In this document: piece by piece, positions 1-54,482 of the stretch
How the letters are laid out: each line of letters opens with the position of its first letter
Position numbering within the stretch: position 1 is the first letter of the stretch
Source of the DNA: Eledone cirrhosa
Taxonomy: Eukaryota
NCBI GenBank assembly: GCA_964016885.1
Contig: OZ024740.1
Location: forward strand, 195,424,001 to 195,488,000
Direction: 5' to 3'
Length of the DNA: 64,000 nt
Made by a program: the position numbers and the translations under genes
Notes under the pieces: generated by a model
Databases searched by the model: none
What the model saw: the letters and a program-made list of their open reading frames with translations, nothing else
What the model was told of the DNA's origin: nothing

Positions 1-3000
1 TACATCAACATAATATCACACTGTATGTAGTGGCTACCTATTACATCAACATAATATCACACTGTATGTAGTGGCTACCTATTACATCAACATAATATCA
101 CACTGTATGTAGTGGCTACCTATTACATCAACATAATATCACACTGTATGTAGTGGCTACCTATTACATCAACATAATATCACACTGTATGTAGTGGCTA
201 CCTATTACATCAACATAATATCACAATGTATGTAGAGGCTACCTATTACATCAACATAATATCACACTGTATGTAGTGGCTACCTATTACATCAACATAA
301 TATCACACTGTATGTAGAGGCTACCTATTACATCAACATAATATCACACTGTATGTAGTACCTACCTATTACATCAACATAATATCACACTGTATGTAGT
401 GGCTACCTATTACATCAACATAATATCACAATGTATGTAGAGGCTACCTATTACATCAACATAATATCACACTGTATGTAGTGGCTACCTATTACAACAA
501 CACAATATCACACTGCATGTAGTACCTACCTATTACAACATAATATCACACTGTATGCAGTGGCTACCTATTACATCAACATAATATCACACTGTATGTA
601 GTGGCTACCTATTACATCAACATAATATCACACTGTATGTAGAGGCTACCTATTACATCAACATAATATCACACTGTATGTAGTACCTACCTATTACATC
701 AACATAATATCACACTGTATGTAGTGGCTACCTATTACATCAACATAATATCACACTGTATGTAGTGGCTACCTATTACATCAACATAATATCACACTGT
801 ATGTAGTGGCTACCTATTACATCAACATAATATCACACTGTATGTAGTGGCTACCTATTACATCAACATAATATCACACTGTATGTAGTGGCTACCTATT
901 ACAACAACACAATATCACACTGTATGTAGTACCTACCTATTACAACATAATATCACACTGTATGTAGTGGCTACCTATTACATCAACATAATATCACACT
1001 GTATGTAGTGGCTACCTATTACATCAACATAATATCACACTGTATGTAGTGGCTACCTATTACATCAACATAATATCACACTGTATGTAGTGGCTACCTA
1101 TTACATCAACATAATATCACACTGTATGTAGTGGCTACCTATTACATCAACATAATATCACACTGTATGTAGTGGCTACCTATTACATCAACATAATATG
1201 ACACTGTATGTAGTGGCTACCTATTACAACAACATAATATCACACTGTATGTAGTGGCTACCTATTACATCAACATAATATCACACTGTATGTAGTACCT
1301 ACCTATTACATCAACATAATATCACACTGTATGTAGTGGCTACCTATTACATCAACATAATATCACACTGTATGTAGAGGCTACCTATTACATCAACATA
1401 ATATCACACTGTATGTAGTGGCTACCTATTACATCAACATAATATCACACTGTATGTAGTGGCTACCTATTACATCAACATAATATCACACTGTATGTAG
1501 TGGCTACCTATTACATCAACATAATATCACACTGTATGTAGTGGCTACCTATTACAACAACACAATATCACACTGTATGTAGTACCTACCTATTACAACA
1601 TAATATCACACTGTATGTAGTGGCTACCTATTACATCAACATAATATCACACTGTATGTAGTGGCTACCTATTACATCAACATAATATCACACTGTATGT
1701 AGTGGCTACCTATTACATCAACATAATATCACACTGTATGTAGTGGCTACCTATTACATCAACATAATATCACACTGTATGTAGTGGCTACCTATTACAT
1801 CAACATAATATCACACTGTATGTAGTGGCTACCTATTACATCAACATAATATGACACTGTATGTAGTGGCTACCTATTACAACAACATAATATCACACTG
1901 TATGTAGTGGCTACCTATTACATCAACATAATATCACACTGTATGTAGTACCTACCTATTACATCAACATAATATCACACTGTATGTAGTGGCTACCTAT
2001 TACATCAACATAATATCACACTGTATGTAGAGGCTACCTATTACATCAACATAATATCACACTGTATGTAGTACCTACCTATTACATCAACATAATATCA
2101 CACTGTATGTAGTGGCTACCTATTACATCAACATAATATCACACTGTATGTAGTGGCTACCTATTACATCAACATAATATCACACTGTATGTAGTGGCTA
2201 CCTATTACATCAACATAATATCACACTGTATGTAGTGGCTACCTATTACATCAACATAATATGACACTGTATGTAGTGGCTACCTATTACAACAACATAA
2301 TATCACACTGTATGTAGTGGCTACCTATTACATCAACATAATATCACACTGTATGTAGTACCTACCTATTACATCAACATAATATCACACTGTATGTAGT
2401 GGCTACCTATTACATCAACATAATATCACACTGTATGTAGTGGCTACCTATTACATCAACATAATATCACACTGTATGTAGTACCTACCTATTACAACAA
2501 CATAATATCACACTGTATGTAGTACCTACCTATTACAACATAATATCACACTGTATGTAGTGGCTACCTATTACAACATAATATCACACTGTATGTAGTA
2601 CCTACCTATTACAACAACATAATATCACACTGTATGTAGTACCTACCTATTACAACATAATATCACACTGTATGTAGTACCTACCTATTACATCAACATA
2701 ATATCACACTGTATGTAGTACCTACCTATTACAACATAATATCACACTGTATGTAGTACCTACCTATTACATCAACATAATATCACACTGTATGTAGTGG
2801 CTACCTATTACAACAACATAATATCACACTGTATGTAGTGGCTACCTATTACATCAACATAATATCACACTGTATGTAGTGGCTACCTATTACATCAACA
2901 AAATATCACACTGTATGTAGTGGCTACCTATTACAACAACATAATATCACACTGTATGTAGTGGCTACCTATTACATCAACATAATATCACACTGTATGT

Positions 3001-3525
3001 AGTGGCTACCTATTACATCAACATAATATCACACTGTATGTAGTGGCTACCTATTACATCAACATAATATCACACTGTATGTAGTGGCTACCTATTACAT
3101 CAACATAATATCACACTGTATGTAGTACCTACCTATTACATCAACATAATATCACACTGTATGTAGTGGCTACCTATTACATCAACATAATATCACACTG
3201 TATGTAGTGGCTACCTATTACATCAACATAATATCACACTGTATGTAGTGGCTACCTATTACATCAACATAATATCACACTGTATGTAGAGGCTACCTAT
3301 TACATCAACATAATATCACACTGTATGTAGTACCTACCTATTACATCAACATAATATCACACTGTATGTAGAGGCTACCTATTACATCAACATAATATCA
3401 CACTGTATGTAGTGGCTACCTATTACATCAACATAATATCACAATGTATGTAGAGGCTACCTATTACATCAACATAATATCACACTGTATGTAGTGGCTA
3501 CCTATTACATCAACATAATATCACT
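1..3525. repeat. 41-bp tandem minisatellite/satellite (TACATCAACATAATATCACACTGTATGTAGTGGCTACCTAT)n with 38-bp deletion variants
   Basis: Head-to-tail copies with no spacers. Variants GTAGTGGC/GTAGAGGC/GTAGTACC and loss of one TCA/CAA triplet. Runs off the left edge of the window. Confidence 0.97.
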
Positions 3526-6830: not shown

Positions 6831-7607
6831 TTTCGTTTCTGAATTTGTTTAGCAAGATTCTTTATCTGAAAACGTGTGTTGGAACCGATATTGTTATACT
6901 TTGGGAGGGTCATGTTGCCAATAAGAAACACACGCAGCAGTTGCTTTCACTTCAATTTATTATAATAAATTTATAAATTTAGGAATTTATAAATTTCTGG
7001 TTGGTTGGTTGGTTCCACAACCAGATAGTTGTATATATATTGTCAAAGTTCTTTCGTCACACATTCTGTGACCTCTTCAGTGACTGGGGATTCTTTTCTT
7101 TGTTTTTGTGCCTCTCCTTTGTTCTGTCCTACGCCATCTTGTTTCTGTGTGTGTGTGTTGTGTGCTCAGTCTGCGCATGCGCCACATCCGGGTGTCTGTG
7201 TGTGTTTATATTCGTTTATTTATTTGTTTATTTACATGTTACCGGTTGGTTGTTTGTTCTATGTGCGTGTGTGTTTTCATTTTGTCTTTAATTGTAAGTT
7301 GTGATGTTGCTGTTCCACTCATATTTTCTATTTAATTTTGGTTGTAATTCTTTTATGTTTATTTAATAAACATAAAAGAATTACAACCAAAATTAAAAAT
7401 TAAAATTTAAAAAAAAAATAAAAGTTAAAACAAAATTAAATAGAAAATATGAGTGGAACAGCAACATCACAACTTACAATTAAGGACAAAATGAAAACAC
7501 ACGCACATAGAACAAACAACCAACCGGTAACATGTAAATAAACAAATAAATAAACGAATATAAACACACACAGACACCCGGATGTGGCGCATGCGCAGAC
7601 TGAGCAC
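6831..7607 (-). mobile_element. Penelope-like (Neptune-type) pseudo-LTR fragment with 5' fold-back inversion
   Basis: 6831-7363 is a near-identical copy of 27528-28045. 7365-7607 is the reverse complement of 7162-7363 with a ~45-nt A-rich insert. Confidence 0.85.
7042..7084 (-). ncRNA. Minimal type-I hammerhead ribozyme
   Basis: Minus strand reads GTCA-CTGAAGA-G-GTCACA gaatg TGTGAC-GAAA-GAAC-TT-TGAC: stem I GTCA/TGAC, intact core, 6-bp stem II, minimal stem III. Confidence 0.75.
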
Positions 7608-8684
7608 TTGCACAAAACTTTCCTGTATTACAGCCCCACGTTATACCCTAATGGATAGTACGATCTATACGTGGATATTTTACGTCTTGATGTGGGAGCT
7701 AAGTATATGTTTTGTTTATACCATTACTTATTTGCATAGGTAAGTATATATTACCCGTATGTTTCGTGAAGGTACGTATACCTTCTCGTACGTATATTTG
7801 ATTGTTTATGTTATGCCGTATAAACTTTTTTTATTTTTTTTATTCTGGTACATATGGTTTGGCTATGTGTATACGGGAATTTTGCGTCTGTGTGAGTATG
7901 CAGGTTTGTACGTATGTAGGGTGTGTGTATATGTGTACTTCATGTTTTGGTTGACTTACGTCTCCGAACATTCGTGTATTTACATGTAGGTATGTGTGTG
8001 CACTTGTTATTTACGTATTTATTTTTTTATTTATTTATATACGTTTATATAATTATTTATTTATTTATTTGTATACACGCATACACACACACACATATTT
8101 ATATGTGCGTGGTTTTGCATACCTATGGTAAGTGTTTTGCGTATGCTTGTGTATGTACGTATATGTTTGCGTGTATGTATTTATTTATTTCTATTAATTC
8201 TGTATTGTATTTATTGACTTTGTTCTTAACTCTGTAGCTGAGATTCATTCGGTTTCCTAGTTAGAATTTTAGTCTACGACTTCTGCTATACCATTTACGT
8301 GGTTTTGTCTTTGCGGGCTATTGTTCTCCACGCTCCACATATGACTTATTATCTTCGTTTTTTTCGTTCATTGCCAGAGAACGTCTCTATGCACCACCTA
8401 AGAGAACATTAGTCTACGACCTCTTTTATACCATAAACGTGGTTCTGTCTTTGCGCGTAATTGTTTTTCACCGCTCCTATTAATGACGTATCTTATTCGT
8501 TTTTTCCCGTTCTTTGCCAGCGAACGTTACCACGAATCAAAGTATCGTCTTCCTGTCTTCCTCCGGTTGCAACGTTTTTTGAAATATCCACTTCTGCGTT
8601 TACAGATTGACTTTGTTAGTTTCAGAAGATCCCGTTAAGGGTGAAAGCAGCGATTCTTTGCTTAAACTTTAATCTGTTATTTTA

Positions 8685-8690
<6 letters not shown>
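7608..8690 (+). mobile_element. Probable decayed Penelope-like 3' end/pseudo-LTR
   Basis: Starts with a TLYPNG-like GIY-YIG C-terminal remnant. Followed by TG/TA-rich UTR, a ~140-bp tandem duplication (TTAGTCTACGAC at ~8269 and ~8409), a hammerhead-like motif and AATAAA before (TA)n. Confidence 0.45.
8602..8678 (+). ncRNA. Degenerate type-I hammerhead ribozyme (core CAGAAGA)
   Basis: AGTTT-CAGAAGA-T-CCC gttaa GGG-T-GAAA-GCA...TGC-TT-AAACT. Outer stem ACAGATT/AATCTGT. The U4->A change is probably inactivating. Confidence 0.55.
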
Positions 8691-8719
<29 letters not shown>

Positions 8720-8744
8720 TATATATATATATATATGAATATAC

Positions 8745-11700
8745 TGCCTGGCGCTATAAAAGACACTTTCTATGAGACACTGATGCTCACTACCTCCCAA
8801 ATAACCGACAGTGACTATATTATTATTGCTGGCGACCTAAATGGTCACGTTGGACAACATTGTGACGGCTATGATGGAATCCACGGAGGCTATGGGTTTG
8901 GTACTAGAAATGAGGAAGGCTCCAGAATCCTGGAATTCTGTGACGCAAATAACCTAACAATTTGTAACACTAACTTCAAAAAACGAGACAATCAGTTGAT
9001 CACCTACAGATCAGGGGAACACGCCAGCCAGGTAGATTATATCCTTACCAGAAGACGTGACAGAGTGTCTGTTGTAAACACCAAATCCCTCCCCCATGAA
9101 GAATGCACCTCCCAACATAGACTGATAATTAGCGACCTCATAGTCAGGACGAGACGTACCCGACAGCAGAAGAGGAGGACTATCCTCAGGAGAAAAGTAT
9201 GGAAGCTAAAGGACCCTACAGCCAGAAATAAATTTCAAAGCATATTACATGATGCTTTCGACAGTAAGGAAGAGCATTTAGAGTCGTACAATATAGAGGA
9301 ACAGTGGGAATTCCTGAAAGCAAACCTGCTGATGACGGCAGATGAAGTCTGTGGCCGGAGCAGGCCTATAGGCAGGAGGAGAGTAACATGGTGGTGGAAC
9401 AGTAAGGTGGAGGAGTCGATTAAGGCCAAAAAGCAGGCTTGGAAAGTATGGCGGGATGGGGGAAGTAGAGAAGACTATCAAGAGGCCAGGAGGGAAGCTA
9501 GGAGACAAGTGTACTTCGCAAGAAGGGAAGCAGAGGAAAGAAAGTTCAAGCATGTTCTACAACGCGAGGACCAGAAACGTAAGGTGTTCAGGATTGCTAG
9601 GCAATGTGTCAAGGAAAACCGTGATATTGTCGGGGAGAAGTGTGTACTAAATGATGATGGCGTACTTACCATCACTGACGCTGATAAGAAGGTAGCTTGG
9701 AAGTGTCACTACGAAAGGCTACTAAATGAGGAGAATAAATGGGAGAAGGATAGTCTCCCCCAGATAGATCCAATAAAGGGACCAGCAGTGTTAGTTGAAG
9801 GTAGTAAAATAAGTAAGGCAATCAAAGATATGAAGACGGGTAAGGCGGCTGGGCCTTCGGAAATAGTTGCTGAGATGCTGAAAGCCTCTGGAACGGTGGG
9901 ACACACCATGGTCACCCGGATAGTAAACCAAGTCATACAGAATGGGGTTGTTCCGAAGGACTGGCGTAGCAGCATCATCATTAACTGTTACAAGGGTAAA
10001 GGAGACGCCCTAGATAGGAGTAACTATAGAGACATTAAATTCTCTCAGAGAGAGAATTGATCTAGATGAAATGCAGTTCAGGTTTTTGTCAGGCAAAAGT
10101 ACCACAGACGCTCTTTTCATTGTACGACAACTACAGGAGAAGTACCTAGCTAAAAGTAAACCCCTATACTTAGCCTTTGTCGATTTGGAGAAAGCGTTCG
10201 ACAGAGTCCCCCGTTCCATTATCTGGTGGGCTCTTAGAAAACTAGGTGTTGATGAATGGCTTGCGAGAGCTATACAAGCCATGTTTAAAGAAACAGTCAG
10301 CAAGGTTAGAATTAACAACGAATATAGTGAAGAGTTTAGCATAAAAGTTGGTGTTCATCAGGGCTCTGTTCTTAGCCCCCTACTATTTATTATTGCCCTA
10401 CAGGCTATAACAGTGGAGTTCAAGACCGGCTGCCCATGGGAACTCCTATACGCAGACGACCTGACACTCATAGCTGAATCAATGGCCGAGCTAGAGAAGA
10501 AATTCCAAACATGGAAGCACGGCCTAGAATCAAAAGGACTTAAAATTAACCTGGCTAAGACTAAAGTTCTAGTTTGTAGGAAAGAAAATAAGGCGGCGGT
10601 CCCTTTTGGGAAATGGTCATGCTCAGTGTGTAGGAAAGGCGTAGGTAGAAACTCCATTTTATGTCCTAAATGCAAAGTATGGGTGCATAAAAGATGTAGT
10701 GGGATCACAGGTAAGCTAACTAAGAACATAGATTTTACATGTGGCCGGTGCTCTGGTGCAATAAGTAGCAGCAAGTGCCCACAAAATACTAGCTCTTTCA
10801 ATTGCGCAGAGGGTTCTATAGAAATAGTGGACAGCTTCCGTTACCTGGGCGATAAAATCAGCAGTGGGGGAGGGTGCTCTGAAAGTACAGTAGCTAGAGT
10901 CAGAACAGGTTGGAAAAAGTTCAGAGAGCTTATACCACTATTAGCCGCTAAAGGGTTCTCACTAAAAATGAAAGGCAGGTTGTACGATGCCTGCATACGA
11001 ACAGCAATGTTGCATGGCAGTGAGACCTGGGCATTGTGTGCAGAGGATATACGCAGACTAGAGAGGAACAAAGCTTGCATGCTCCGCTGGATGTGTAACA
11101 GTAATATACGTGAACGGCAAAGCATAAACGAACTAAGGAAAAAATTAGAAATAAGAGGGATCAGATGTTGTTTACTCGAGAGAAGGCTACGTTGGTATGG
11201 ACACGTGATGTGCATGAAAGTTGATAGCTGTATAACAAAGTGCAGGGCAATAAAGATAGACGGTAGCCACGGAATAGGCAGACCTAGAAAAACCTGGGAC
11301 GAGCTGATAAACTCCGACCTCACACACTTACACCTCTCCAAGACAATGTCACTGGACCGAGACCTTTGGCGGTACTCAGTAACAGAGAAGACCCGCCTTA
11401 CCTAAATACATAGTAAAACCTACTACAGCGAGTAGGCATCTCTAACAAAATACACCCCGTCCCACCAACCCCACCCCATCCACACCACCCCGTTCTATGT
11501 AAAGTTATGTTGGTGCCGCGCCATCCAGGCCGAAACAAATGAGATCGTGTAGGTGTCACGACAAAAAAACACACAGTCCACGCTGTAATGTGGCCGTGTA
11601 GGCAATACGGTAAAAACCTCCCAGACCCACACTGTAAATGTGGTTGGTGTTAGGAAGGGCATCCAACTGTAGAAAACCTGCCAGACAGTCCTATGCGAGC

Positions 11701-11804
11701 AAGACAATCACTCTTGCCTCAAGTGGGACTACCCCCGTCCAAACCCATGCAAGCGTGGAACACGGACGTTAAACGTTGATGATGATGATGATGATGATGA
11801 TGAT
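8745..11804 (+). mobile_element. RTE-clade LINE, 5'-truncated, with ~44-nt frameshifting deletion in RT
   Basis: ORF 8735-10060 carries APE motifs GDLNGH, VDYIL and SQHRL. ORF 10071-11405 carries RT motifs FVDLEKAFD, GVHQGSVLSPLLF and YADD plus a PHD finger. Segment LMDQVMKVTERVIAQ of the intact copy is missing near 10040. (GAT)n tail. Confidence 0.95.
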
Positions 11805-11824
11805 ATATATATATATATATTCAT

Positions 11825-12424
11825 ATCATCATCAACGTTTAATGTCCGTGTTCCACGCTTGCATGGGTTTGGACGGGGGTAGTCCCACTTGAGGCAAGAG
11901 TGATTGTCTTGCTCGCATAGGACTGTCTGGCAGGTTTTCTACAGTTGGATGCCCTTCCTAACACCAACCACATTTACAGTGTGATGTCTGGGAGGTTTTT
12001 ACCGTGTTGCCTACACGGCCACATTACAGCGTGGACTGTGTGTTTTTTTTTTACGTGACACCTACACGATCTCATTTGTTTCGGCCTGGATGGCGCGGCA
12101 CCAACATAACTTTACATAGAACGGGGTGGTGTGGAAGGGGTGGGGGTGGGGGTGGTGGGACGGGGTGTATTTTGTTAGAGATGCCTACTGGCTGGAGTAG
12201 GTTTTACTATATATTTAGGTAAGGCGGGTCTTCTCTGTTACTGAGTACCGCCAAAGGTCTCGGTCCAGTGACATTGTCTTGGAGAGGTGTAAGTGTGTGA
12301 TGTCGGAGTTTATCAGCTCGTCCCAGGTTTTTCTAGGTCTGCCTATTCCGTGACTACCGTCTATCTTTATTGCCCTGCACTTTGTTATACAGCTATCGAC
12401 TTTCATGCGCATCACGTGTCCATA
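11825..12424 (-). mobile_element. RTE-clade LINE 3' fragment, tail-to-tail with the preceding copy
   Basis: Reverse complement of ~11196-11790. ORF 12215-12415 encodes the same C-terminus. Begins with (ATC)n. Confidence 0.93.
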
Positions 12425-12705
12425 TATATATATTCATATATATATATATATATATATATATTCATATATATATATATATTCAACAATTAAGTTAAAAGTG
12501 TACATCCACATATGTATACTGAAATACTAGTATGCATATAAATACACACACGTATACATATGTACATGTACCGAGTTTTTCACTGGACACTTTACTGTGA
12601 GTGTCCAGCTAGTCTGTATGTAACCAAACAGACAAACCGGTTTTTAGAGTCATACGGGTTTTCAAGGAAACACCTTTCCTCTATTCTCCAGAGAGCCAGA
12701 CAGGA

Positions 12706-12748
12706 ATATTGGACTAGTTTCGATGTTATTACATCTCATCAGCAATAT
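12706..12748 (-). ncRNA. Minimal type-I hammerhead ribozyme (GUC site)
   Basis: Reverse complement of the 13300-13342 motif, identical sequence. Confidence 0.92.
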
Positions 12749-13299
12749 ATACCCGTCTTCCGGCTTCTCGAGAGAATTGTAAAAGCATATATCGTTATAT
12801 GCTTTTTCTATGAAAATTAGTAGTGGGCAGACTAATTTGCATAGAACGTGAGTACGCACCGGTTCAGCGGAAACGATAAAAACGATAAAAACAAGAGAAT
12901 AGAGGAAAGGTGTTTCCTTGAAAACCCGTATGACTCTAAAAACCGGTTTGTCTGTTTGGTTACATACAGACTAGCTGGACACTCACAGTAAAGTGTCCAG
13001 TGAAAAACTCGGTACATGTACATATGTATACGTGTGTGTATTTATATGCATACTAGTATTTCAGTATACATATGTGGATGTACACTTTTAACTTAATTGT
13101 TTAAGCGTCAGTCATACAAAAGTGAGTTACAAACGAAACGAAATTTAATTTCGTTTCGTTATTTGTTTTTATCGTTTCCGCTGAACCGGTGCGTACTCAC
13201 GTTCTATGCAAATTAGTCTGCCCACTACTAATTTTCATAGAAAAAGCATATAACGATATATGCTTTTACGATTCTCTAGAGAAGCCGGAAGATGGGTAT

Positions 13300-13342
13300 A
13301 TATTGCTGATGAGATGTAATAACATCGAAACTAGTCCAATAT
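13300..13342 (+). ncRNA. Minimal type-I hammerhead ribozyme (GUC site)
   Basis: ATATTG-CTGATGA-GATGT aata ACATC-GAAA-CTAG-TC-CAATAT: perfect core, G-C closing pair, palindromic stem III ACTAGT. Predicted cleavage after C13336. Confidence 0.93.
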
Positions 13343-13635
13343 TCCTGTCTGGCTCTCTGGAGAATAGAGGAAAGGTGTTTCCTTGAAAACCCGTATGACT
13401 CTAAAAACCGGTTTGTCTGTTTGGTTACATACAGACTAGCTGGACACTCACAGTAAAGTGTCCATGAAAAACTCGATACATGTACATATGTATACGTGTG
13501 TGTATTTATATGCATACTAGTATTTCAGTATACATATGTGGATGTACACTTTTAACTTAATTGTTTCAGCGTCAGTCATACAAAAGTGAGTTACAAACGA
13601 AACAAAATTTAATTTCGTTTCGTTATTTGTTTTTA

Positions 13636-14531
13636 TATATATTCATATATATATATATATTCATATATATATATATATATTCATATATATATATATATAT
13701 TCATATATATATATATATTCATATATATATATATATATATATTCATATATATATATATATATTCATATATATATATATATATATATTCATATATATTCAT
13801 ATATATATATATATTCATATATATATATATATATATATTCATATATATATATATATATTCATATATATATATATATATATATTCATATATATATATATAT
13901 ATATATATTCATATATATATATATATATTCATATATATATATATTCATATATATATATATTCATATATATATATATATATATATATTCATATATATATAT
14001 ATTCATATATATATATATATATATATATATTCATATATATATATTCATATATATATATATTCATATATATATATATATATATATATTCATATATATATAT
14101 ATATATATATTCATATATATATATATTCATATATATATATATTCATATATATATATATTCATATATATATATATTCATATATATATATATTCATATATAT
14201 ATATTCATATATATATATATATTCATATATATATATATATTCATATATATATATATTCATATATATATATATATTCATATATATATATATATTCATATAT
14301 ATATATATTCATATATATATATATTCATATATATATATATTCATATATATATATATTCATATATATATATATATTCATATATATATATATATATTCATAT
14401 ATATATATATATTCATATATATATATATATTCATATATATATATATATTCATATGTATATATATATTCATATGTATATATATATTCATATATATATATAT
14501 ATTCATATATATATATATTCATATATATATA

Positions 14532-14599
<68 letters not shown>

Positions 14600-14852
14600 T
14601 ATATATATATATATATATATTCATATATATATATATATATATATTCATATATATATATATATATATATTCATATATATATATATATTCATATATATATAT
14701 ATTCATATATATATATATTCATATATATATATATATATTCATATATATATATATATTCATATATATATATATTCATTTATATATATTCATATATATATTC
14801 ATATATATATATTCATTTATATATATTCATTTATATATATATGTTCATATAT
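13636..14852. repeat. Compound microsatellite, (TA)n periodically interrupted by TTCA
   Basis: Direct reading. The long YI-rich ORFs here are artefacts of it. Confidence 0.97.
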
Positions 14853-15048
14853 GTAGATAAATCTACCAAGAGTTTACGGTAGTGTCCAATCCGTATGAAG
14901 AACTCAATGTATTCCGGATATCATGGAAAGAAGAGATGTAATGAAAAATCACTTTCGGTGAAAGATAAACGGTATACAGAGTCAAGATAAAATATTAAAC
15001 AAATAATGAATAAACAATGAAACAGTTCCTTATATTAAACAAAAAAAG

Positions 15049-15202
15049 TTCATTATTTAACGATCGTTTCTAGGATATATATGTGTTAGAATTGGCATGC
15101 ATATTCAACAGATCTATGTACAAAATTATACAAAATTATACAAACTATCAAGATTAAATATACATACCAACACATATATACGCCGTCTTCAGAAATAATG
15201 AA
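15049..15202 (-). ncRNA. Type-I hammerhead ribozyme with long rod-like stem II
   Basis: Mirror copy of 23779-23932. Confidence 0.8.
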
Positions 15203-15838
15203 ATATATTTATTGATAATAACAACAATTCAAAATTTCAGGTCCGTTTGGGAACAAAATTGACCAATGAAAATACAAAAGGTTTAATGCAGTTCGGTGTG
15301 TGTATATACATGTAACTACCCTTACACATATTTTACAAAAATGTATGCTCAACTTGTATACGCATACCACAAGGATGGATGCAAATACAAAATTTCAAGG
15401 TTAATGTCTCTGTAAGTTTATAATGCACAGATAAGATGCGTATAGACACATAAATATGAAATAAGTGTATACACATATTCTCATACTCACACATATCCGT
15501 ACAATCACACACACACGCGCGTATATGCATAAACATACACATAACTACGAACATACAAACACACACACACCCCCACTCACATATATATATGTGGATATAA
15601 AATCCTAAGCACATGGATATTAATTCACTCACATAAACACTGGCACACACATTTAGATCAAGATACAGAAATTAGGTGGGAGGGGGGGAGAGGTCAGTAT
15701 TCAACGGTTTGGGCAGACTGCTTAATATAGATGTATCTATAAACTAAGAAAATAAAAAAATAAAAAAATAAAAAATAATAAATAATAAATAAACATTAAA
15801 AAGAAAAGAAAAGAAAAAGAAAAAAGAAATATATCAAG

Positions 15839-15902
<64 letters not shown>

Positions 15903-16046
15903 CATATATATACACATATATATATATATATATATACAAACACATACATACATATACACACATCCACACTTAGAACATACATACACACACATATATAAAC
16001 ATATACATATACACACATACATACATATACACACATACATATAAAT

Positions 16047-16091
<45 letters not shown>

Positions 16092-16382
16092 TATACACAC
16101 ATACATACACATATAATCACACATACTATATAGACACACATATATATACACACATACACGCACATATACATACACTTACATACTTATATACATACAGATA
16201 TACACATACATACCTATATATACACACAAATACATACAGACATACATACATACATACAGACAAATACTTACGCATCCATATATCGGTATATACATACAAA
16301 CACCACTACACTCTCACACAACTCAGACATACAAAGAAAAAGGTATATACCTATACACATATACATATACAAATAGAGAAAC

Positions 16383-16443
<61 letters not shown>

Positions 16444-16637
16444 CACATATACACACATACACATACATACACATACATACATGTACACACACATAGATAT
16501 ATATACACACATACACACATACATATATAGTCATACACACACATACACCTACACGAACATACACATACACATATATAAAGATATATATACACACACACAC
16601 ACACATACACACACACACACACATATATATAAAATAA

Positions 16638-16674
<37 letters not shown>

Positions 16675-17005
16675 CATATACATACACACATACATAGACA
16701 TATATGTACATACATACACATACATACATACATACACACACATACATACATATATATATACACACATAGACATATACATACATACACACACAACATACAT
16801 ACACACATATATACTCATACATAGAATTAGATATATATTCATACATACATACGCACTTACATATACTCATATATACAAATACATACGCATCCATATATGC
16901 GTATATACATAGAAACACCACTACACCCTCACCCAACTCAGACATACAAAGAAAAAGGCATATACATATACATATATACACGCATTAATAGAGATATATA
17001 TACAC

Positions 17006-17036
<31 letters not shown>

Positions 17037-17245
17037 CACTTATATATATATACCCACACACACATACAACCATAAATACACATACAAACACCCACATATA
17101 CATATATATACACATATATATATATACACACACATAAAAAACAGACATGCACATATATATTTTTTTACACATATATATACACATATATATACATATACAC
17201 ACCCTCACATATACACACATACACATAAGTTATATTATAATAATA

Positions 17246-17298
<53 letters not shown>

Positions 17299-17547
17299 CG
17301 AATATAGACATATATACACACATAGATATATATATATATATATACACATACATATACACACACACATACACACACTCACATATATATGTGTGTGTACACA
17401 CACATATATACACATACACACATATACACATAAACACATATATGTGTATACATGCACACACACACATATATCCACATAGATACGAAGATAGACATATAAA
17501 TAGAGAGACATACATATATATACACACACACATATACATACATACAT

Positions 17548-17612
<65 letters not shown>

Positions 17613-18389
17613 TACACATACACATATATATACACATGCATATATACACATATATATATATACATACACACATATATATACACACACAATCTTACATTCT
17701 TATTTGCATGCGCATATATGTATTTTTATATTCAGATATAAATACCCAAACATATATACACCTACCTACATATATATTCATACATACACGCTTACAAACA
17801 CAGATGATAATAGTATGGGGGAAAGGGGGGGGTGGAGAAGGGGATTATAGTAAATATATGTTTCAAGAAACATAGAATATTATCCGTATCTGGATCCAAT
17901 GTATGTTTTTACATAGTTTCAGTGTTAGGAAATACAATAAACAAGAAATAAGGCAAAATTTATGCATTTCAAAATAAATAAGTATACCATTAATTATATG
18001 TTAACTAAACTAAAGATAGTTAACATATTGATTTCTAAGGTGTAAATTAGTTAGGTTTATAATATTTGAAGCAGAATTTTGAAGTTAAATAGTAGTAGAG
18101 TATTAATTATAGTATAACTAAATTAAAGTTAATAACGTTATGGTATCAATATTAGGAAATGAATTTAGTAATAGGGAAAAAACAAATAAAGTATTACATC
18201 GGTAGTAGAATATAAATTATAGGTTAACTAAATTAAAAATTATATATTTATTTCTATAGTATATGTTAATTAGGTATATAATAAATAAAACAGATATTGT
18301 ATTTTATCAATAGCAGAATATAATTATATGCAAATAGAAATCAAAATTAATACATATACATATACATATACATACACATACATATATAC

Positions 18390-18436
<47 letters not shown>

Positions 18437-18924
18437 TACACATACACATACATATATACATATACATATTTTTTCAAAAATTGCAAAGAATATATTAACT
18501 AGGTTTATATCCAAAACACATCCCATTCTATGATTACATGACATTCTGCAATTCGTCTGTATAAGGATACTAATTTTAAGCCAATTAAATTAAATTTTTA
18601 GGTTGACTAAATTTAAAACCAAATTATAAATATATTTCTAAAATGTATATTAATTAGGTCTATAATACTAAAAATTATTTCTCTGTCATTGGATACACGA
18701 TATTTTGTTATATTTTATCTGTAAAGGAATTATAATAAAAGGTTTAAATAAATTAAAATTAATCTATAAATTAAATTACTAAGTATATATTAGTAATATT
18801 TAAAGGTTTTTCACCATTTATGATTACATAATATTTTATATTCTCATCTGTAATAGAATTTTAATTAAATTAAATTTATAGGTTAACTAACATTTAAATT
18901 AAATTAATTTCTAAAATAATGTTA

Positions 18925-19892
18925 TTAATTAGGTTTATAATATTTAAATGTTTTTTTTAGTTTATGATTACACGATATAATTAATTCCTGTCGTTTATTT
19001 AATAGGATATCCTTAGATTTCATTATTTCAAATAGTTCTTGGGAACATAATCTACATTCATTTCTATTATTTTGATAAGGGGTGGCTCTTTTGAGCACAC
19101 TCCAGGTCAAATCATATTCTATATTCTTATTTTTATAACTATTGATTTTTTCTGCTAGAGATGTTGTATTAGCCAGTGCGGCATTTTTAAAACTATGCTT
19201 GTGGGTATTAAACCTTGTCTTAAAATTGTTAGAGGTAGCTCCTATATATGAGCAAATAGAATCTTTAGTTTTAACATTACATTTATAGACTATGTTGTTA
19301 ACAAGACAATTCCCTTTTAATGGGCAGTTTGCTTTGTTTCTACAGTTACAACCTTTCGTTAATTCTGTATTTGAGGAGATATTATGGTTAATTTGATGTA
19401 CTGGTGGTATACTTATGGTTTTCTTACATTTATATGCATTATAGGCACTTATATTTTGTTTTATGTTATTTGTTGTAGAGTATGAGAATTTAACTGTAGA
19501 CCTATTTAAGATTTGATGGTATTTGTGGTTTGGCGGGAAGTTTTTCTCTAGGATATAAAAAAATTTTTTAGCAATATTATCCTTAATTTGTAAATTAAAT
19601 GGAGCATTATACCAAGTAACCCGTCTATTACGGTTTCTATGTTGTTTATTATTTTTATTATTTTTATAGGTTGTATCGTGATTTTTACTAGGAGGATTAA
19701 TGTTAATGATCTCACCACAACCATTTTTAGTTATATTTGTAGATTTAGGTGTTTTATCCTTTTTATTAGGAGTTTTATTATTAATATTTATTAGAGTTGT
19801 ATGATGAGTAGTTTTTTGAGAGTTACTATACTTTATATTAGAAGATTTGGTATTTTGGGGTATAGTGTGGGTGGCATTTAGGTGTGTACTTT
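18925..19892 (-). pseudogene. 5'-truncated Penelope-like ORF: linker, CxC-x5-C-x5-C motif and GIY-YIG endonuclease
   Basis: RNRRVTWYNAPF, FPPNHKY..ILNR.TVKFSYS, GCNCRNKANCPLKGNCL, NIVY...YIG.T..FK.R..H, CRLC..E, LLNKRQE..SCNH. Open to the stop codon; the RT domain has been lost. Confidence 0.9.
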
Positions 19893-20531
19893 TCAAAATA
19901 ATAGAAATGAATGTAGATTATGTTCCCAAGAACTATTTGAAATAATGAAATCTAAGGATATCCTATTAAATAAACGACAGGAATTAATTATATCGTGTAA
20001 TCATAAACTAAAAAAAACATTTAAATATTATAAACCTAATTAATAACATTATTTTAGAAATTAATTTAATTTAAATGTTAGTTAACCTATAAATTTAATT
20101 TAATTAAAATTCTATTACAGATGAGAATATAAAATATTATGTAATCATAAATGGTGAAAAACCTTTAAATATTACTAATATATACTTAGTAATTTAATTT
20201 ATAGATTAATTTTAATTTATTTAAACCTTTTATTATAATTCCTTTACAGATAAAATATAACAAAATATCGTGTATCCAATGACAGAGAAATAATTTTTAG
20301 TATTATAGACCTAATTAATATACATTTTAGAAATATATTTATAATTTGGTTTTAAATTTAGTCAACCTAAAAATTTAATTTAATTGGCTTAAAATTAGTA
20401 TCCTTATACAGACGAATTGCAGAATGTCATGTAATCATAGAATGGGATGTGTTTTGGATATAAACCTAGTTAATATATTCTTTGCAATTTTTGAAAAAAT
20501 ATGTATATGTATATATGTATGTGTATGTGTA

Positions 20532-20582
<51 letters not shown>

Positions 20583-21356
20583 GTATATATGTATGTGTAT
20601 GTATATGTATATGTATATGTATTAATTTTGATTTCTATTTGCATATAATTATATTCTGCTATTGATAAAATACAATATCTGTTTTATTTATTATATACCT
20701 AATTAACATATACTATAGAAATAAATATATAATTTTTAATTTAGTTAACCTATAATTTATATTCTACTACCGATGTAATACTTTATTTGTTTTTTCCCTA
20801 TTACTAAATTCATTTCCTAATATTGATACCATAACGTTATTAACTTTAATTTAGTTATACTATAATTAATACTCTACTACTATTTAACTTCAAAATTCTG
20901 CTTCAAATATTATAAACCTAACTAATTTACACCTTAGAAATCAATATGTTAACTATCTTTAGTTTAGTTAACATATAATTAATGGTATACTTATTTATTT
21001 TGAAATGCATAAATTTTGCCTTATTTCTTGTTTATTGTATTTCCTAACACTGAAACTATGTAAAAACATACATTGGATCCAGATACGGATAATATTCTAT
21101 GTTTCTTGAAACATATATTTACTATAATCCCCTTCTCCAACCCCCCCCCCTTTCCCCCATACTATTATCATCTGTGTTTGTAAGCGTGTATGTATGAATA
21201 TATATGTAGGTAGGTGTATATATGTTTGGGTATTTATATCTGAATATAAAAATACATATATGCGCATGCAAATAAGAATGTAAGATTGTGTGTGTATATA
21301 TATGTGTGTATGTATATATATATATGTGTATATATGCATGTGTATATATATGTGTA

Positions 21357-21415
<59 letters not shown>

Positions 21416-21660
21416 ATGTATGTATGTATATGTGTGTGTGTATATATATGTATGTCTCTCTATTTATATGTCTATCTTCGTATCTATGTGGATATATGTG
21501 TGTGTGTGCATGTATACACATATATGTGTTTATGTGTATATGTGTGTATGTGTATATATGTGTGTGTGCACACACATATATATGTGTGTGTATGTGTGTG
21601 TGTATATGTATGTGTATATATATATATATATATCTATGTGTGTATATATGTCTATATTCG

Positions 21661-21727
<67 letters not shown>

Positions 21728-22292
21728 TATTATTATAATATAACTTATGTGTATGTGTGTATATGTGAGGGTGTGTATATGTATATATATGTGTATATAT
21801 ATGTGTAAAAAAATATATATGTGCATGTCTGTTTTTTATGTGTGTGTATATATATATATGTGTATATATATGTATATGTGGGTGTTTGTATGTGTATTTA
21901 TGGTTGTATGTGTGTGTGGGTATATATATATAAGTGTATGTGTATATATATATATATATATGTGTATATATATCTCTATTAATGCGTGTATATATGTATA
22001 TGTATATGCCTTTTTCTTTGTATGTCTGAGTTGGGTGAGGGTGTAGTGGTGTTTCTATGTATATACGCATATATGGATGCGTATGTATTTGTATATATGA
22101 GTATATGTAAGTGCGTATGTATGTATGAATATATATCTAATTCTATGTATGAGTATATATGTGTGTATGTATGTTGTGTGTGTATGTATGTATATGTCTA
22201 TGTGTGTATATATATATGTATGTATGTGTGTGTATGTATGTATGTATGTGTATGTATGTACATATATGTCTATGTATGTGTGTATGTATATG

Positions 22293-22335
<43 letters not shown>

Positions 22336-22529
22336 TTATTTTATATATATGTGTGTGTGTGTATGTGTGTGTGTGTGTATATATATCTTTATATATGTGT
22401 ATGTGTATGTTCGTGTAGGTGTATGTGTGTGTATGACTATATATGTATGTGTGTATGTGTGTATGTGTATATATATCTATGTGTGTGTACATGTATGTAT
22501 GTGTATGTATGTGTATGTGTGTATATGTG

Positions 22530-22592
<63 letters not shown>

Positions 22593-22883
22593 GTTTCTCT
22601 ATTTGTATATGTATATGTGTATAGGTATATACCTTTTTCTTTGTATGTCTGAGTTGTGTGAGAGTGTAGTGGTGTTTGTATGTATATACCGATATATGGA
22701 TGCGTAAGTATTTGTCTGTATGTATGTATGTATGTCTGTATGTATTTGTGTGTATATATAGGTATGTATGTGTATATCTGTATGTATATAAGTATGTAAG
22801 TGTATGTATATGTGCGTGTATGTGTGTATATATATGTGTGTCTATATAGTATGTGTGATTATATGTGTATGTATGAGTGTATA

Positions 22884-22938
<55 letters not shown>

Positions 22939-23088
22939 ATTTATATGTATGTGTGTATATGTATGTATGTGTGTATATGTATATGTTTATATATGTGTGT
23001 GTATGTATGTTCTAAGTGTGGATGTGTGTATATGTATGTATGTGTTTGTATATATATATATATATATATGTGTATATATATATATATA

Positions 23089-23142
<54 letters not shown>

Positions 23143-23778
23143 CTTGATATATTTCTTTTTTCTTTTTCTTTTCTTTTCTTTTTAATGTTTATTTATTATT
23201 TATTATTTTTTATTTTTTTATTTTTTTATTTTCTTAGTTTATAGATACATCTATATTAAGCAGTCTGCCCAAACCGTTGAATACTGACCTCTCCCCCCCT
23301 CCCACCTAATTTCTGTATCTTGATCTAAATGTGTGTGCCAGTGTTTATGTGAGTGAATTAATATCCATGTGCTTAGGATTTTATATCCACATATATATAT
23401 GTGAGTGGGGGTGTGTGTGTGTTTGTATGTTCGTAGTTATGTGTATGTTTATGCATATACGCGCGTGTGTGTGTGATTGTACGGATATGTGTGAGTATGA
23501 GAATATGTGTATACACTTATTTCATATTTATGTGTCTATACGCATCTTATCTGTGCATTATAAACTTACAGAGACATTAACCTTGAAATTTTGTATTTGC
23601 ATCCATCCTTTTGGTATGCGTATACAAGTTGAGCATACATTTTTGTAAAATATGTGTAAGGGTAGTTACATGTATATACACACACCGAACTGCATTAAAC
23701 CTTTTGTATTTTCATTGGTCAATTTTGTTCCCAAACGGACCTGAAATTTTGAATTGTTGTTATTATCAATAAATATAT

Positions 23779-23932
23779 TTCATTATTTCTGAAGACGGCG
23801 TATATATGTGTTGGTATGTATATTTAATCTTGATAGTTTGTATAATTTTGTATAATTTTGTACATAGATCTGTTGAATATGCATGCCAATTCTAACACAT
23901 ATATATCCTAGAAACGATCGTTAAATAATGAA
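23779..23932 (+). ncRNA. Type-I hammerhead ribozyme with long rod-like stem II
   Basis: TTCATTATTT-CTGAAGA-[~115-nt stem II: TATATATGTGTT/AACACATATATA and TTGGTATGTATATT/AATATGCATGCCAA]-GAAA-CGATCG-TT-AAATAATGAA. 10-bp stem I, palindromic stem III ACGATCGT, GUU site. Confidence 0.8.
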
Positions 23933-24073
23933 CTTTTTTTGTTTAATATAAGGAACTGTTTCATTGTTTATTCATTATTTGTTTAATATTTTATGTTCAT
24001 ATATATATATATATTCATATATGAGAGACGTAAAATAAGAAAATTATAAAATTAACTTACTTACTAAAAAATC

Positions 24074-24156
24074 ACTTCCAACTAATTAGTTTCTGGAATG
24101 GAATAAATATATTTTCCGAAGAAACATATAGAAAATCATTCCGTCATCAGGAAAGT
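24074..24156 (-). ncRNA. Type-I hammerhead ribozyme
   Basis: Minus strand: ACTTTC-CTGATGA-C-GGAATG...CATTCC-A-GAAA-CTAATTAG-TT-GGAAGT. Palindromic stem III ACTAATTAGT. Confidence 0.85.
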
Positions 24157-24341
24157 CTTTTGACTGATTGACCTCGATGTCACGTGATTGATTCTTTTTG
24201 AATTTGCCACAGACGTAGAGGCAGTGATTTTCTCAATGGCTAGGAATCGAGTCCACGCTTCGCTATTTCCTTTCCACTGAATTATTTTTTTTAATAAGTT
24301 TCCAGAGTCCTCGCTATGCCTGGAGACTTACACGGAAAAAG

Positions 24342-24470
24342 ACTTTCCTGATGACGGAATGATTTTATATATGTTTCTTCGGAAAATATATCTGATGACG
24401 GAATGATTTTATATATGTTCTTCTTCGGAAAATATATTTACTCCATTCCAGAAACTAATTAGTTGGAAGT
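24342..24470 (+). ncRNA. Type-I hammerhead ribozyme with internal ~44-nt duplication (two CTGATGA boxes)
   Basis: CTGATGA at 24348 and 24392, GAAA at 24451, ACTAATTAGT stem III, stem I ACTTTC/GGAAGT. Confidence 0.8.
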
Positions 24471-24619
24471 GATTTTTTAGTAAGTAAGTTAATTTTATAA
24501 TTTTCTTATTTTATTGTTCTGCAACCCCATGCATTGAACCACAATGTTAATAAGACAAACCTATATATTTGCTAGCATTGGTATGCATCTGTGTGTATAT
24601 AAATGTTACTAGATATAAA

Positions 24620-27527: not shown

Positions 27528-27530
<3 letters not shown>

Positions 27531-28999
27531 CGTTTCTGAATTTGTTTAGCAAGATTCTTTATCTGAAAACGTGTGTTGAAACCGATATTGTTATACTTTG
27601 GGAGGGTCATGTTGCCAATAAGAAACACACACACCAGTTGCTTTCACTTCAATTTATTATAATAAATTTATAAATTTAGGAATTTATAAATTTCCGGTTG
27701 GTTGGTTGGTTCCACAACCAGATGGTTGTTTATATATTGTCAAAGTTCTTTCGTCACACATTCTGTGACCTCTTCAGTGACTGGGGATTCTTTTCTTTGT
27801 TTTTTGTACCTCTCCTTTTTTCTGTCCTATGCCATCTTGTTTGTGTGTGTGTGTTGTGTGCTTAGTTTGTGCATGTGTTACATCCGGGTGTCTGTGTGTG
27901 TTTATATTCGTTTATTTACATGCTACTGGTTGGTTGTTTGTTCTATATGCGTGTGTTTCCATTTTCTCCTTAATTGTAAGTTGTGATGTTGCTGTTCCAC
28001 TCATGTTTTCTATTTAATTTTGGTTGTAATTCATTTATGTTTATTGCCTCTGTGATTTGATTGTCTAAAGATTGCGCCTTTTCTGTGTGTAGATTCTATT
28101 TTTATTTCTATGTTCTCTAATTTACCTTTATGTTCTATTTTAGCATGTTGGTAGAGTACACCAGTGTTCATTTATCCGTTCCCCTATACTACAAGCTGTC
28201 TCACCTATGTACACTATATTTATATCTCTACATTGTCCTTCAGTACATCTTATGCTATATACAACATTTCTAGTTTTACAGTTAATATGTGGGCTTAATT
28301 TACAGATTATACATTTCTTATCTATACAGGGAGGTCTTTGAAAAGGGTATGTCTTGCTAATAAGTGTTTTTATGGAGGTACCTGGTCTTTCTACTATCTT
28401 AATATTGAGTTTATGTTTATCTAGGGCCCTTCTAAATTTGTAAGCTAATTCACCTCTAGGGGTTGTATCGATGAACATTACACTCTGGTATTTATTGCTA
28501 TCATACCAGGAGTTTATTCTATTAGCCTTATTCCTAGTTCTTTCTATTCTATTCCAAAATTTGCTCCTATACAAGGGCAGGTCCCATTTGTGTCATTATT
28601 TACCATTTTTTCCCATTTGGTTCTGGCTCCTCTATACACTCTGATTTTATCTCTCTGATTGTAACCAGAGAACTGCATACGGTGGATGAAGTGTTGTATG
28701 TGTCTCTCTAGTTCTTCGGGGTTACACATGCGGGACACGTTTCTCATCACCCGTACCAAATCCGCAATCAGTATGTTGATTTTGGTATGGTCCGAAACAG
28801 GTGAGTTTCGGTGGATCAGATATTTAGAAGTCATGGGTTTGGCATAATGGGAATAGAGGATTTGTTTTTTGTTATTAATGGTATCTAACCAGAGCTCTGT
28901 GTCTAGTACAGGTAATCGATGGTTGGGGTGTTTGCTTGGGTAGTCTATAGTAACTCTAATACTCTGGTGGATGGAGTTAGCTATTTGCTGGATGCTTTC

Positions 29000-46500: not shown

Positions 46501-47001
46501 ATGACAGCTGCATAAAAAGGTGCAGAGCACTAGAAGTTGATGGAAACCGCGGAGTGGGGAGACCCAAGATGACTTGGGATGAGGTGATAAAAGCCGACCT
46601 TACCCAACTACACCTCTCAAAGTCAATGACACACGACCGTGACTTCTGGCGTCACGCAGTAATACAGGGTACCCGACCTCCCATGGGTACATGCTGAAGC
46701 ATATAAACAATATGCCCCCCCCCCCCCACCGCAAGGTGGTCGTGGAGGTGCCACGGCAAAAAAGCACCCAGCCCACACTGTAAAGTGGACGTGTAGGCGC
46801 CACGAAAAAGCACCCAGCACTCACTGTAAATGAGGTTGGTGTTAGGAAGGGCATCCAGCTGTAGAAATCAAGCCAGATCAGTTCCTGTATGAGCAAGGCA
46901 TGGTCAGCCGACCAGACACTGCCCACAACAGGACAACCCGTCTAACCCATGCTAGCGTGGAAGAACGGACGTAAAACGGTGATGATGATGATGATGATGA
47001 T
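43514..47001 (+). mobile_element. Near full-length RTE-clade LINE
   Basis: Single long ORF, ~300-nt 3' UTR, (GAT)n tail, (TA)n on both sides. Confidence 0.96.
43578..46697 (+). CDS. RTE polyprotein: APE endonuclease, reverse transcriptase, PHD-type zinc finger, C-terminal domain (1039 aa, uninterrupted)
   Basis: APE motifs TINV, VQETRW, SAYAPQ, GDFNGH, LDFIL, SQH. RT motifs NYRGIKL, QFGF, DLEKAFD, QGSVLSP, YADD. C-x2-C...C-x2-C-x4-H-x2-C...C-x2-C. RRLRWYGHV and GRPK.TW. Confidence 0.97.
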   Translation: MNLRATKHPREAPTQRPSPTSVDKCPKLRVGTINVGSMKGRAGEIVEMLERKEVDVCCVQETRWRGGSARVLVGKGQCYKFFWVGNDDGMGGVGILLADKWVDKVISVYRVNARIIKLRLVLNKTITTIISAYAPQSGLPDELKDRFYESLIHTTALTDDKDFLIIAGDFNGHVGKHCDGFNRVHGGHGVGTRNEEGFRLLEFCDANDMSICNTNFKKPDNHLITYRSGEHSSQLDFILIRGRDRWTVVNTKAFPSEECTSQHSLVVSDLTVRTRRALKQRPTWRRKIWKLKVPSTSNRFKDILLNAYDSKEEQIETFNVEENWEFLKNNLLEATDEVCGWSKTSSRRRVTWWWNNKVDEAVKAKRQAWKEWKNGGSRVHYIETKREARRQVYLARREAEDRKFKHVLQREDQKQEVFKIARQCVRDSCDVIGEKCIRNDKGELALTSAEKKDAWKSHYDRLLNEENAWEEETLPHVDPIEGPAVQVSGSVVSKAIRDMKIGKATGPSGIAAEMLKASGSVGHTITTRIVNQVILEGAIPKDWCSSIIVNCYKGKGDALDRGNYRGIKLMDQVMKVTERVIAQLIRDRVNIDEMQFGFVPGKGTTDALFLVRQLQEKYLAKSKPLYLAFVDLEKAFDRVPRAVIWWALRKLGVDEWLVKAVQAMYRGAVSKVRIGNEYSEEFSVQVGVHQGSVLSPLLFIIVLQAITEEFKTGCPWELLYADDLALIAESMVELENKFQTWKQGLERKGLKVNMTKTKVLISRRENRTQIPSGKWPCSVCRKGVGRNSILCPKCKQWVHKRCSGISGSLIKNVGFTCSSCAETASKQPQETSTTNLWEGPVETVDSFCYLGDRISNGGGCSESTITRVRTGWKKFRELLPLLAAKGFSLRMKGRLYDACIRTAMLHGSETWALKVEDLRRLERNEACMLRWMCNSNIRERQSINELRERLSIRGIKCCVQERRLRWYGHVMRMKDDSCIKRCRALEVDGNRGVGRPKMTWDEVIKADLTQLHLSKSMTHDRDFWRHAVIQGTRPPMGTC

Positions 47002-50962: not shown

Positions 50963-51264
50963 ACATGGTTATACAAAACAGGAAGGACAACCGTCTGAAC
51001 GCGCATGCGAAGAAATGATCGCTTCACAGGCAATACTAAAATGTGTGCGAGAGGTGTAAGGGAGATAACTGCGAAAGTCCAAAAAGTTTCCAGTTGATAA
51101 GAAAATTAGGATGTTGTTGTTATTCAATCCGGAGCTTTGTTGTTATGTAAGAGGTGTTTCGAGACGTGTGGACAACGTGTGAAGAATTCATTTCTCGTGT
51201 TTAGGCAATCGCTATTGCATAATTTCTTTCGAATATTTATTCGTTCATCAATACATAGTTCACA

Positions 51265-54137: not shown

Positions 54138-54482
54138 AGGCATATGGCTTAGTGGTTAGAGCATTGGCCTTGCAAGCGAAAGGTTGTGAGTTCAATTCTC
54201 AGACCGGGTGATGTGTTGTTTCCTTGAGCAAGACACTTTATTTCACATTGCTCCAGTTTACTCAGCTGTAGAAATGAGATGATAGGGACTAGGGTCCATA
54301 TCATTCCACTGCAAAGTGGTCGTGGAGGTGCCACGGCAAAAAAGCACCCAGCACTCACTGTAAATGAGGTTGGTGTTAGGAAGGGCATCCAGCTGTAGAA
54401 ATCAAGCCAGTATCAGTTCCCGTCCCACCCTTGCAAGCAGGGAAAAGCGGACGTAAAATGATGATGATGATGATGATGATGA
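54138..54482 (+). mobile_element. Full-length tRNA-derived CORE-type SINE with RTE-derived 3' end
   Basis: Near-identical to the 42734-43427 copies. (GAT)n tail. Confidence 0.9.

Follow-up and report, generated by a model that had tools for sequence, protein, structure and literature searches.

The window analysed here, a stretch of 64,000 nucleotides from Eledone cirrhosa, harbours a protein-free 465-nt hammerhead repeat which, judged from its sequence and that of its sister copies, a Penelope-like reverse transcriptase/endonuclease likely inserted at a TA repeat by copying one, probably circular, RNA. The repeat is a further animal non-LTR retrozyme, thus of a known kind. Its copy in the window, an unremarkable one among very many, is laid out as follows.

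12473..12481, plus strand: left copy of the target-site duplication, 9 bp, TATATATTC, within a (TA)n/TTCA microsatellite
12482..12894, minus strand: inverted arm, 413 nt, 5′-truncated near unit position 268-271 and ending at the “short” 3′ end (unit 204-210)
12884..12895, strandless: 5′-to-5′ joint of both arms with a 10-nt slipped duplication
12895..13635, plus strand: tandem arm of 1.6 units, one complete (1-465) and one stopping at unit position 277/278, the “long” 3′ end
13132..13160, plus strand: perfect 29-nt hairpin inside the tail sequence, where the arm joint lies in 6 of 71 two-arm sister insertions
13206..13213, plus strand: octamer-like ATGCAAAT, kept in both lineages of the family, within one side of a predicted hairpin
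13563..13635, plus strand: “tail” of about 70 nt separating the short from the long 3′ end
13636..13644, plus strand: right copy of the target-site duplication, opening a 1.2-kb TA-rich microsatellite (13634-14852)

Self-comparison of the locus confirmed what a sequence-only reading had proposed, namely an ORF-less unit repeated head-to-tail with a period of 464-465 over about 1.6 copies at 12895-13635: the first full unit spans 12895-13359 (465 nt), the second, partial copy reaches 13635, and the first 278 nt recur within the plus arm at 98.6% identity (period 465/464). The inverted copy of about 410 nt described in the same reading was likewise found, as the 413-nt arm, 99% identical to the plus-arm unit. 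No ORF of note is present in the circularised unit, the longest ATG frames encoding 26 aa (plus strand) and 70 aa (minus strand), and its GC content of 0.36 lies below the 45% characteristic of non-LTR retrozymes. The target duplication at the window locus is weaker evidence, its two copies standing in the same phase within a repeat; informative sister loci give 8-10 bp. Directly left of the retrozyme, a LINE (8666-11405) is followed by an inverted copy of its own 3′ end (11196-12424). Elsewhere in the window, a 41-bp satellite occupies positions 1-3524 (86 copies, 95% matches), and a tRNA-like match (Rfam, 34 bits) at 54145-54202 lies inside a dispersed repeat and is probably a SINE head.

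The family to which the locus belongs is large. A DNA search of the own genome gave at least 177 matches of approximately 90-100% identity when 40 of 1,047 candidates were scored; the exact 25-nt hammerhead core occurs 1,515 times genome-wide, and a looser hammerhead pattern of the clade 40,646 times vs 17 for the control. Two lineages, colinear and about 65% alike, are distinguished by their tandem units, which measure 465, 466 and 469 nt in lineage A and 418-432 or about 500 nt in lineage B; over the first 14 Mb of C1 the latter outnumbers lineage A at dispersed sites, and it has the same two-arm footprint (L052:4469-5912, L178, L155-L158) and carries compensatory changes in its hammerhead. 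A type I hammerhead is present in each repeat unit of the family, as expected for retrozymes. Long arrays, comprising 15, 31 and >55 units (G000:C1:14.04 Mb, 5.74 Mb and 95.62 Mb) contain higher-order variant blocks of 2-7 units, with between-unit divergence of 0.7% and 1.9%, and retain Penelope-type ends where these are seen. Since such blocks repeat, the long arrays grew later in DNA and are mixed in content; retrozyme insertions are thus turning into satellites, and the arrays are poor candidates for the uniform templates of dispersed insertions.

Termini of the dispersed copies are strictly defined. Arms end at unit position 277-278 or 201-210 in 36 of 37 cases among the 21 best-scoring loci and in 54 of 58 among 34 position-ordered loci (one segmental duplicate and two stray hits being left out of these sets); one long end is paired with one short end in 15 of 16 and 19 of 21 two-arm loci, respectively, and all 37 two-arm loci of both sets are joined 5′-to-5′. 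Genome-wide, 1,875 exact junctions of the long end with a TA repeat were counted (control, 0), next to 7,252 occurrences of the read-through form. From the first 100 listed long-end sites, 97 were retained as an end-selected set after exclusion of one long array, one duplicate and one unretrieved site, 17 of the loci being shared with the position-ordered set; an inverted arm accompanies 71 of them, terminating at the short end in 64, while 10 more possess a stub of it, 12 have neither and 6 extend beyond the stretch examined. Every arm keeps the same polarity relative to its own outer end, and lineage B has a homologous pair of 3′ ends with a tail of about 60 nt vs about 70 nt in lineage A. 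Thus, the random circular permutation that had been expected from the window, and for which genome-wide start and end points were to be tabulated, gave way to 3′ ends fixed at two sites throughout the family. Such ends imply internal priming at two sites of the RNA, and a circular template is not thereby refuted. An apparent hot spot of 5′ ends at unit 300-311 (8/57; 20/1000 simulations) was not repeated in the end-selected set (10 vs 7.6).

Short ends sit at AU positions of the RNA, which match the TA target. At flanks other than pure TA, duplications of 8-10 bp are seen (for example L039, L056, L059, L064, L134), a duplication match of at least 6 nt being present in 14 of 22 loci, several of them within repeats. 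Joints between arms show overlaps of 0-8 nt or small gaps, with seven exceptions of 25-37 nt, six of which fall in the 29-nt hairpin, and no terminal direct repeat besides the tandem unit was seen. A matching footprint is described for Penelope elements (PMC8557442), and a Penelope enzyme has two internal start sites in vitro (PMC11167929), a finding with which the tail agrees. The fixed ends, the tail, the paired arms and the AT-rich or microsatellite target, as is usual for Penelope-like elements, therefore support the assignment of the pattern to a Penelope footprint. The proposal that the retrozyme is moved by Penelope-type machinery gains from these ends, from the duplications and from the fact that none of the copies examined is joined to a Penelope ORF.

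The last point bears on the view that the copies are merely truncated pseudo-LTR ends of an autonomous Penelope-like element and constitute no separate family. In favour of this view, the copies agree with Penelope insertions in their ends, tail, inverted arm, TA target and hammerhead; in contrast, none of the 97 end-selected loci and none of 35 larger hammerhead-selected stretches has a retrozyme arm continuing 5′ into a Penelope ORF, arms pass through up to 11 or more perfect units, and the unit is devoid of a long ORF. Constant attachment to such an ORF, named by the sequence-only reading as the observation that would count against it, is accordingly not what these loci display, and ORFs near retrozyme copies are set apart by their own ends or by a TA repeat. 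A rare ORF-bearing parent may exist among the at least 1,875 insertions, yet we consider the pseudo-LTR origin very improbable.

Three Penelope-like families are represented in the window (ORFs 18925-19917, 51259-51984 and 28140-28592), among the following features.

6832-7144 and 27529-28592: third Penelope-like family, targeting TA, its hammerheads at 7080 and 27777 and its two 3′ ends separated by about 65-70 nt
about 14853-23997: two-arm insertion, inverted, from a Penelope-like family that is very young, whose unit measures 6.67 kb and whose 830-aa ORF is intact
24030-24515: small inverted pair with hammerhead motifs at 24150 (minus) and 24348/24392 (plus) and a long helix II

The neighbouring elements suggested earlier as candidate helpers are thus real, but similarity between any of the three families and the retrozyme unit was not detected, so a common TA target is the best explanation of their proximity. 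All three terminate in TA repeats and show two 3′ ends wherever these are visible. Autonomous Penelope-like elements co-occur with the retrozyme in the genome. The young family forms a tandem of four at G000:C1:183.73-183.76 Mb and retains intact 830-aa ORFs in many copies; the helix II region of its hammerhead is about 115 nt long and its two 3′ ends are about 140 nt apart. Direct Pfam or PDB matches were absent for the 830-aa ORF, which we take to be Penelope-like from its motifs; its Atlas neighbours carry GIY-YIG (26-50% of members) and RVT_1 (18-77%) in some clusters, which points to a putative reverse transcriptase plus GIY-YIG. The third family is a helper candidate by its retrozyme-like tail length, though without likeness in sequence. 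The small pair at 24030-24515 has the helix III palindrome ACTAATTAGT and a related motif occurs in L096; at least four more hammerhead-bearing repeat families end in TA repeats (L033, L043, L061, L067, L068, L108), in several of which two ends are separated by 85-95 nt. The large ORFs of the window at 8666-11405 and 43575-46697 are not Penelope but LINEs with APE endonuclease, reverse transcriptase and PHD finger.

The catalytic part of the repeat and its surroundings are arranged as given below.

12706..12748, minus strand: type I hammerhead of the inverted arm, core at 12742, predicted cut after 12712
13270..13365, plus strand: extended helix I surrounding the hammerhead in the predicted fold, which would clamp both ends of a cut monomer
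13300..13342, plus strand: type I hammerhead of the tandem arm, predicted cut after C13336, recognised by motif and by double-sided changes in helices I and II

In the plus arm, helix I (ATATTG/CAATAT), the core CTGATGA at 13306, helix II (GATGT/ACATC) and GAAA are accompanied by a helix III of the weak type, the palindrome ACUAGU (ACTAGT in DNA). One perfect hammerhead per unit had been claimed; the locus actually contains one per arm (13306 on the plus, 12742 on the minus strand), each with this weak palindromic helix III. With a single hammerhead per arm no cut-to-cut monomer can be released from the locus, and the window copy is likely a dead end. Two or more consecutive hammerhead units, by which the 2026 preprint (10.64898/2026.07.22.740005) recognises active retrozymes, are lacking here and occur elsewhere in the family. 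Hammerheads with weak palindromic helix III are reported to cleave as dimers (PMC4209133, PMC6765202, PMC7229834). The cut triplet varies across units among GUC, GUU and GUA only, and a search of Rfam at gathering score called neither a hammerhead nor any other ribozyme class.

In predicted folds the hammerhead region is more stable than any of 200 shuffles (z = -5.5); the whole window unit folded as a circle, as had been advised, is highly paired and branched (z = -10.9, 25 shuffles), and all seven hairpins named earlier are present in the predicted folds. Together with five representative units the circle folds range from -5.7 to -10.9 (25 shuffles each), the hammerhead strand giving the more stable fold in all six. 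Across 7 units, 28 of 98 consensus pairs are altered on both sides (helix I, 3 of 6; helix II, 3 of 4); this was matched by 0 of 500 shuffles, and slid controls gave 1-6. The 7 units are related, belong to two lineages and supplied the very alignment from which the structure was derived, so the covariation is supportive, short of proof, of selection that would act on the RNA form. As to the octamer-like motif, it prompted, as did a newt example, the idea of an snRNA-type promoter, for which no support was found. U2 snRNA genes occur in tandem arrays (L159-L174); the octamer is absent from the 320 nt upstream of the five examined, and where these upstream regions best match the retrozyme units the stretches are AT-rich.

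A small, branched, highly paired hammerhead RNA also recalls hammerhead viroids and viroid-like satellite RNAs (PMC7761336), and the repeat had been called viroid-like. Such a predicted circle would suit an RNA-replicating agent with occasional reverse transcription into the genome. On its minus strand, however, the unit has no hammerhead core, and a ribozyme in one polarity only means that the family is not viroid-like; moreover, all arms share one polarity relative to the outer end, and exact-match scans of viral and metagenome contigs did not find the pattern. In contrast to viroids, the family is genome-encoded and spreads by DNA insertions, and we regard a replicating RNA agent as the least probable of the explanations weighed.

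Whether the copied RNA was circular or linear is addressed by the arms themselves. Of 168 arms in the end-selected set, 130 run through at least one cut site and 58 through two or more, the 5′ stops occurring on average once per 850 nt. At 388 cut-site junctions the core is exact in 375, the other 13 being substitutions or two single-base deletions. The two arms agree in subfamily at all 32 informative loci (3 others were uninformative). Variants departing from the subfamily majority are present in every unit of both arms in 36 cases and in both arms but not all units in 5 (6,293 sites); for private variants in the end-selected set (85 of the 97 loci, long arrays dropped) the corresponding counts are 36 and 8 (11,391 sites). 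The exceptions, 8 of 44 and 5 of 41 both-arm variants, are what one would expect from a mixed linear multimer or from conversion at a later stage. Dispersed insertions are thus uniform between units, whereas long arrays are mixed. These data argue for one template per insertion, probably a circular RNA; the earlier idea of reverse transcription around a circle is upheld in so far as arms pass two or more cut sites with uniform variants, though the random ends it predicted are absent.

Some of the uniform variants have a directional character. On the hammerhead strand, private variants fixed in all units comprise 25 A>G vs 8 T>C, and singletons 28 vs 29 (Fisher p = 0.015), a test built on 33 variants, several from one locus and some clustered. 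At L044:3414-4707, 11 A>G changes are found in each unit covering those positions, and in L218 one A>G cluster is repeated in 4 of 4 units, three of one arm and one of the other. Clusters at these two loci and at L014 lie between unit positions 290 and 447, not over the whole unit, and may mark a stretch made double-stranded by the inverted arm in the source transcript. The simplest reading of the pattern would be A-to-I editing of one monomer followed by its repeated copying, and we infer ADAR to be its cause.

The same retrozyme and Penelope footprint could also result if the template were an uncut linear multimer of a tandem source whose units were homogenised by DNA duplication or conversion. 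Unprocessed linear RNA is the main template in vitro, where hammerhead cleavage is unneeded (PMC11167929), and 8 of 9 frog dimers stayed uncleaved (2026 preprint, 10.64898/2026.07.22.740005). The weak helix III may leave much RNA uncut, long arrays do exist and expand in DNA, and 8 of 44 shared variants are missing from some units. Against this stand the mixed content of long arrays as opposed to the uniformity of dispersed insertions, and the pattern of L044 and L218, for which an edited monomer, DNA duplication and then re-transposition would be needed at many loci. We hold a linear multimer to be rather unlikely, though the most serious of the alternatives.

Less likely again is copying of a cut linear monomer, its ends clamped by the extended helix I, with the enzyme jumping the nick around a non-covalent circle. 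Uniform units and repeated edits would be accounted for just as well, the ends are kept together in the predicted fold, and immediately 3′ of the cut stops are slightly, though not significantly, more frequent than expected (13 vs 8.9, p = 0.12); the accumulation of 5′ ends at this site suggested by the first 40 loci weakened once 97 were counted. Template jumps usually leave scars, yet no insertion was found at the cut site in any of the 13 deviating junctions among the 388. Covalent circles, besides, predominate in mussel and also occur in coral and axolotl (PMC7229834).

We consider Penelope-type copying of a probably circular monomer the likely explanation; its boldest form, slightly more probable than not, is one in which a dimeric enzyme primes from both ends of a staggered break, starting at two fixed sites of a single RNA that is covalently closed and sometimes ADAR-edited, circles this RNA in each arm and unites the two cDNAs head to head. 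In the general explanation a sister locus with at least two hammerheads would be transcribed, paired hammerheads would cut out a monomer and a host ligase would close it; some RNAs, to judge from the A>G marks, may be A-to-I edited before copying. As ends and duplications suggest, the Penelope enzyme would cut TA DNA with a stagger of 8-10 bp, and both DNA ends would then prime reverse transcription through 1-3 nt of AU microhomology, at two sites within the RNA that are separated by about 70 nt. Both enzymes would run around the same circle for about 850 nt on average, passing the cut site, and the two cDNAs, as the joints imply, would be joined 5′-to-5′ via short homology, sometimes through the 29-nt hairpin. 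A few insertions later expanded into long satellite arrays, as their shared variant blocks show.

Metazoan non-LTR retrozymes described in coral, mussel and axolotl (PMC7229834) and in vertebrates (10.64898/2026.07.22.740005) have the same tandem non-coding low-GC units, a type I hammerhead with weak palindromic helix III, tens of thousands of copies, Penelope-like co-occurrence and forms from monomers to long arrays. Units of the present family (418-500 nt) exceed the 170-400 nt given in PMC7229834, so the view that the repeat is larger than typical animal examples holds against that range, but not against the 51-972 bp of the 2026 preprint. Two fixed 3′ ends, paired inverted arms, target duplications and repeated editing marks are found here and are not described for retrozymes in the available text of these two sources. 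Homology to Penelope pseudo-LTR is stated for 21 frog retrozyme families (2026 preprint), whereas none was found here, and circular RNA was shown for the retrozymes of PMC7229834, whereas for the present family it is predicted from genomic sequence. Endonuclease-bearing Penelope-like elements (PMC8557442, PMC11167929, PMC4209133) have the same partial tandems, inverted 5′-truncated copy, one-ended tail, AT-rich or (TA)n targets and hammerhead, and a circular template has been proposed for them (PMC4209133). The present family differs by the absence of an ORF for reverse transcriptase/GIY-YIG, by strict pairing of one long and one short end and by a tail of about 70 nt vs 30-40 nt in published elements, one Penelope-like family of this genome having about 65-70 nt.

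A Penelope-mediated circular route has already been proposed for animal retrozymes. In the main-text literature searched, nothing was found on cephalopod retrozymes, two-armed retrozyme insertions or editing marks in retrozymes, details that supplements may hold. As far as PMC7229834, PMC8557442, PMC11167929 and the 2026 preprint indicate in the parts available, it is still open how animal retrozymes re-enter DNA and from where the Penelope tail and inverted arm originate. The family described here combines, in one genome, a defined RNA of small size with two mapped start sites, a defined target and candidate enzymes that are young and intact, which makes the question of circle vs linear template testable in vitro. 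Integration by a Penelope enzyme from one circle, if true, would settle how retrozymes move and would provide one mechanism for both the Penelope tail and the inverted arm; it would also mean that an edited RNA has been fixed in multiple copies in the germ-line genome.
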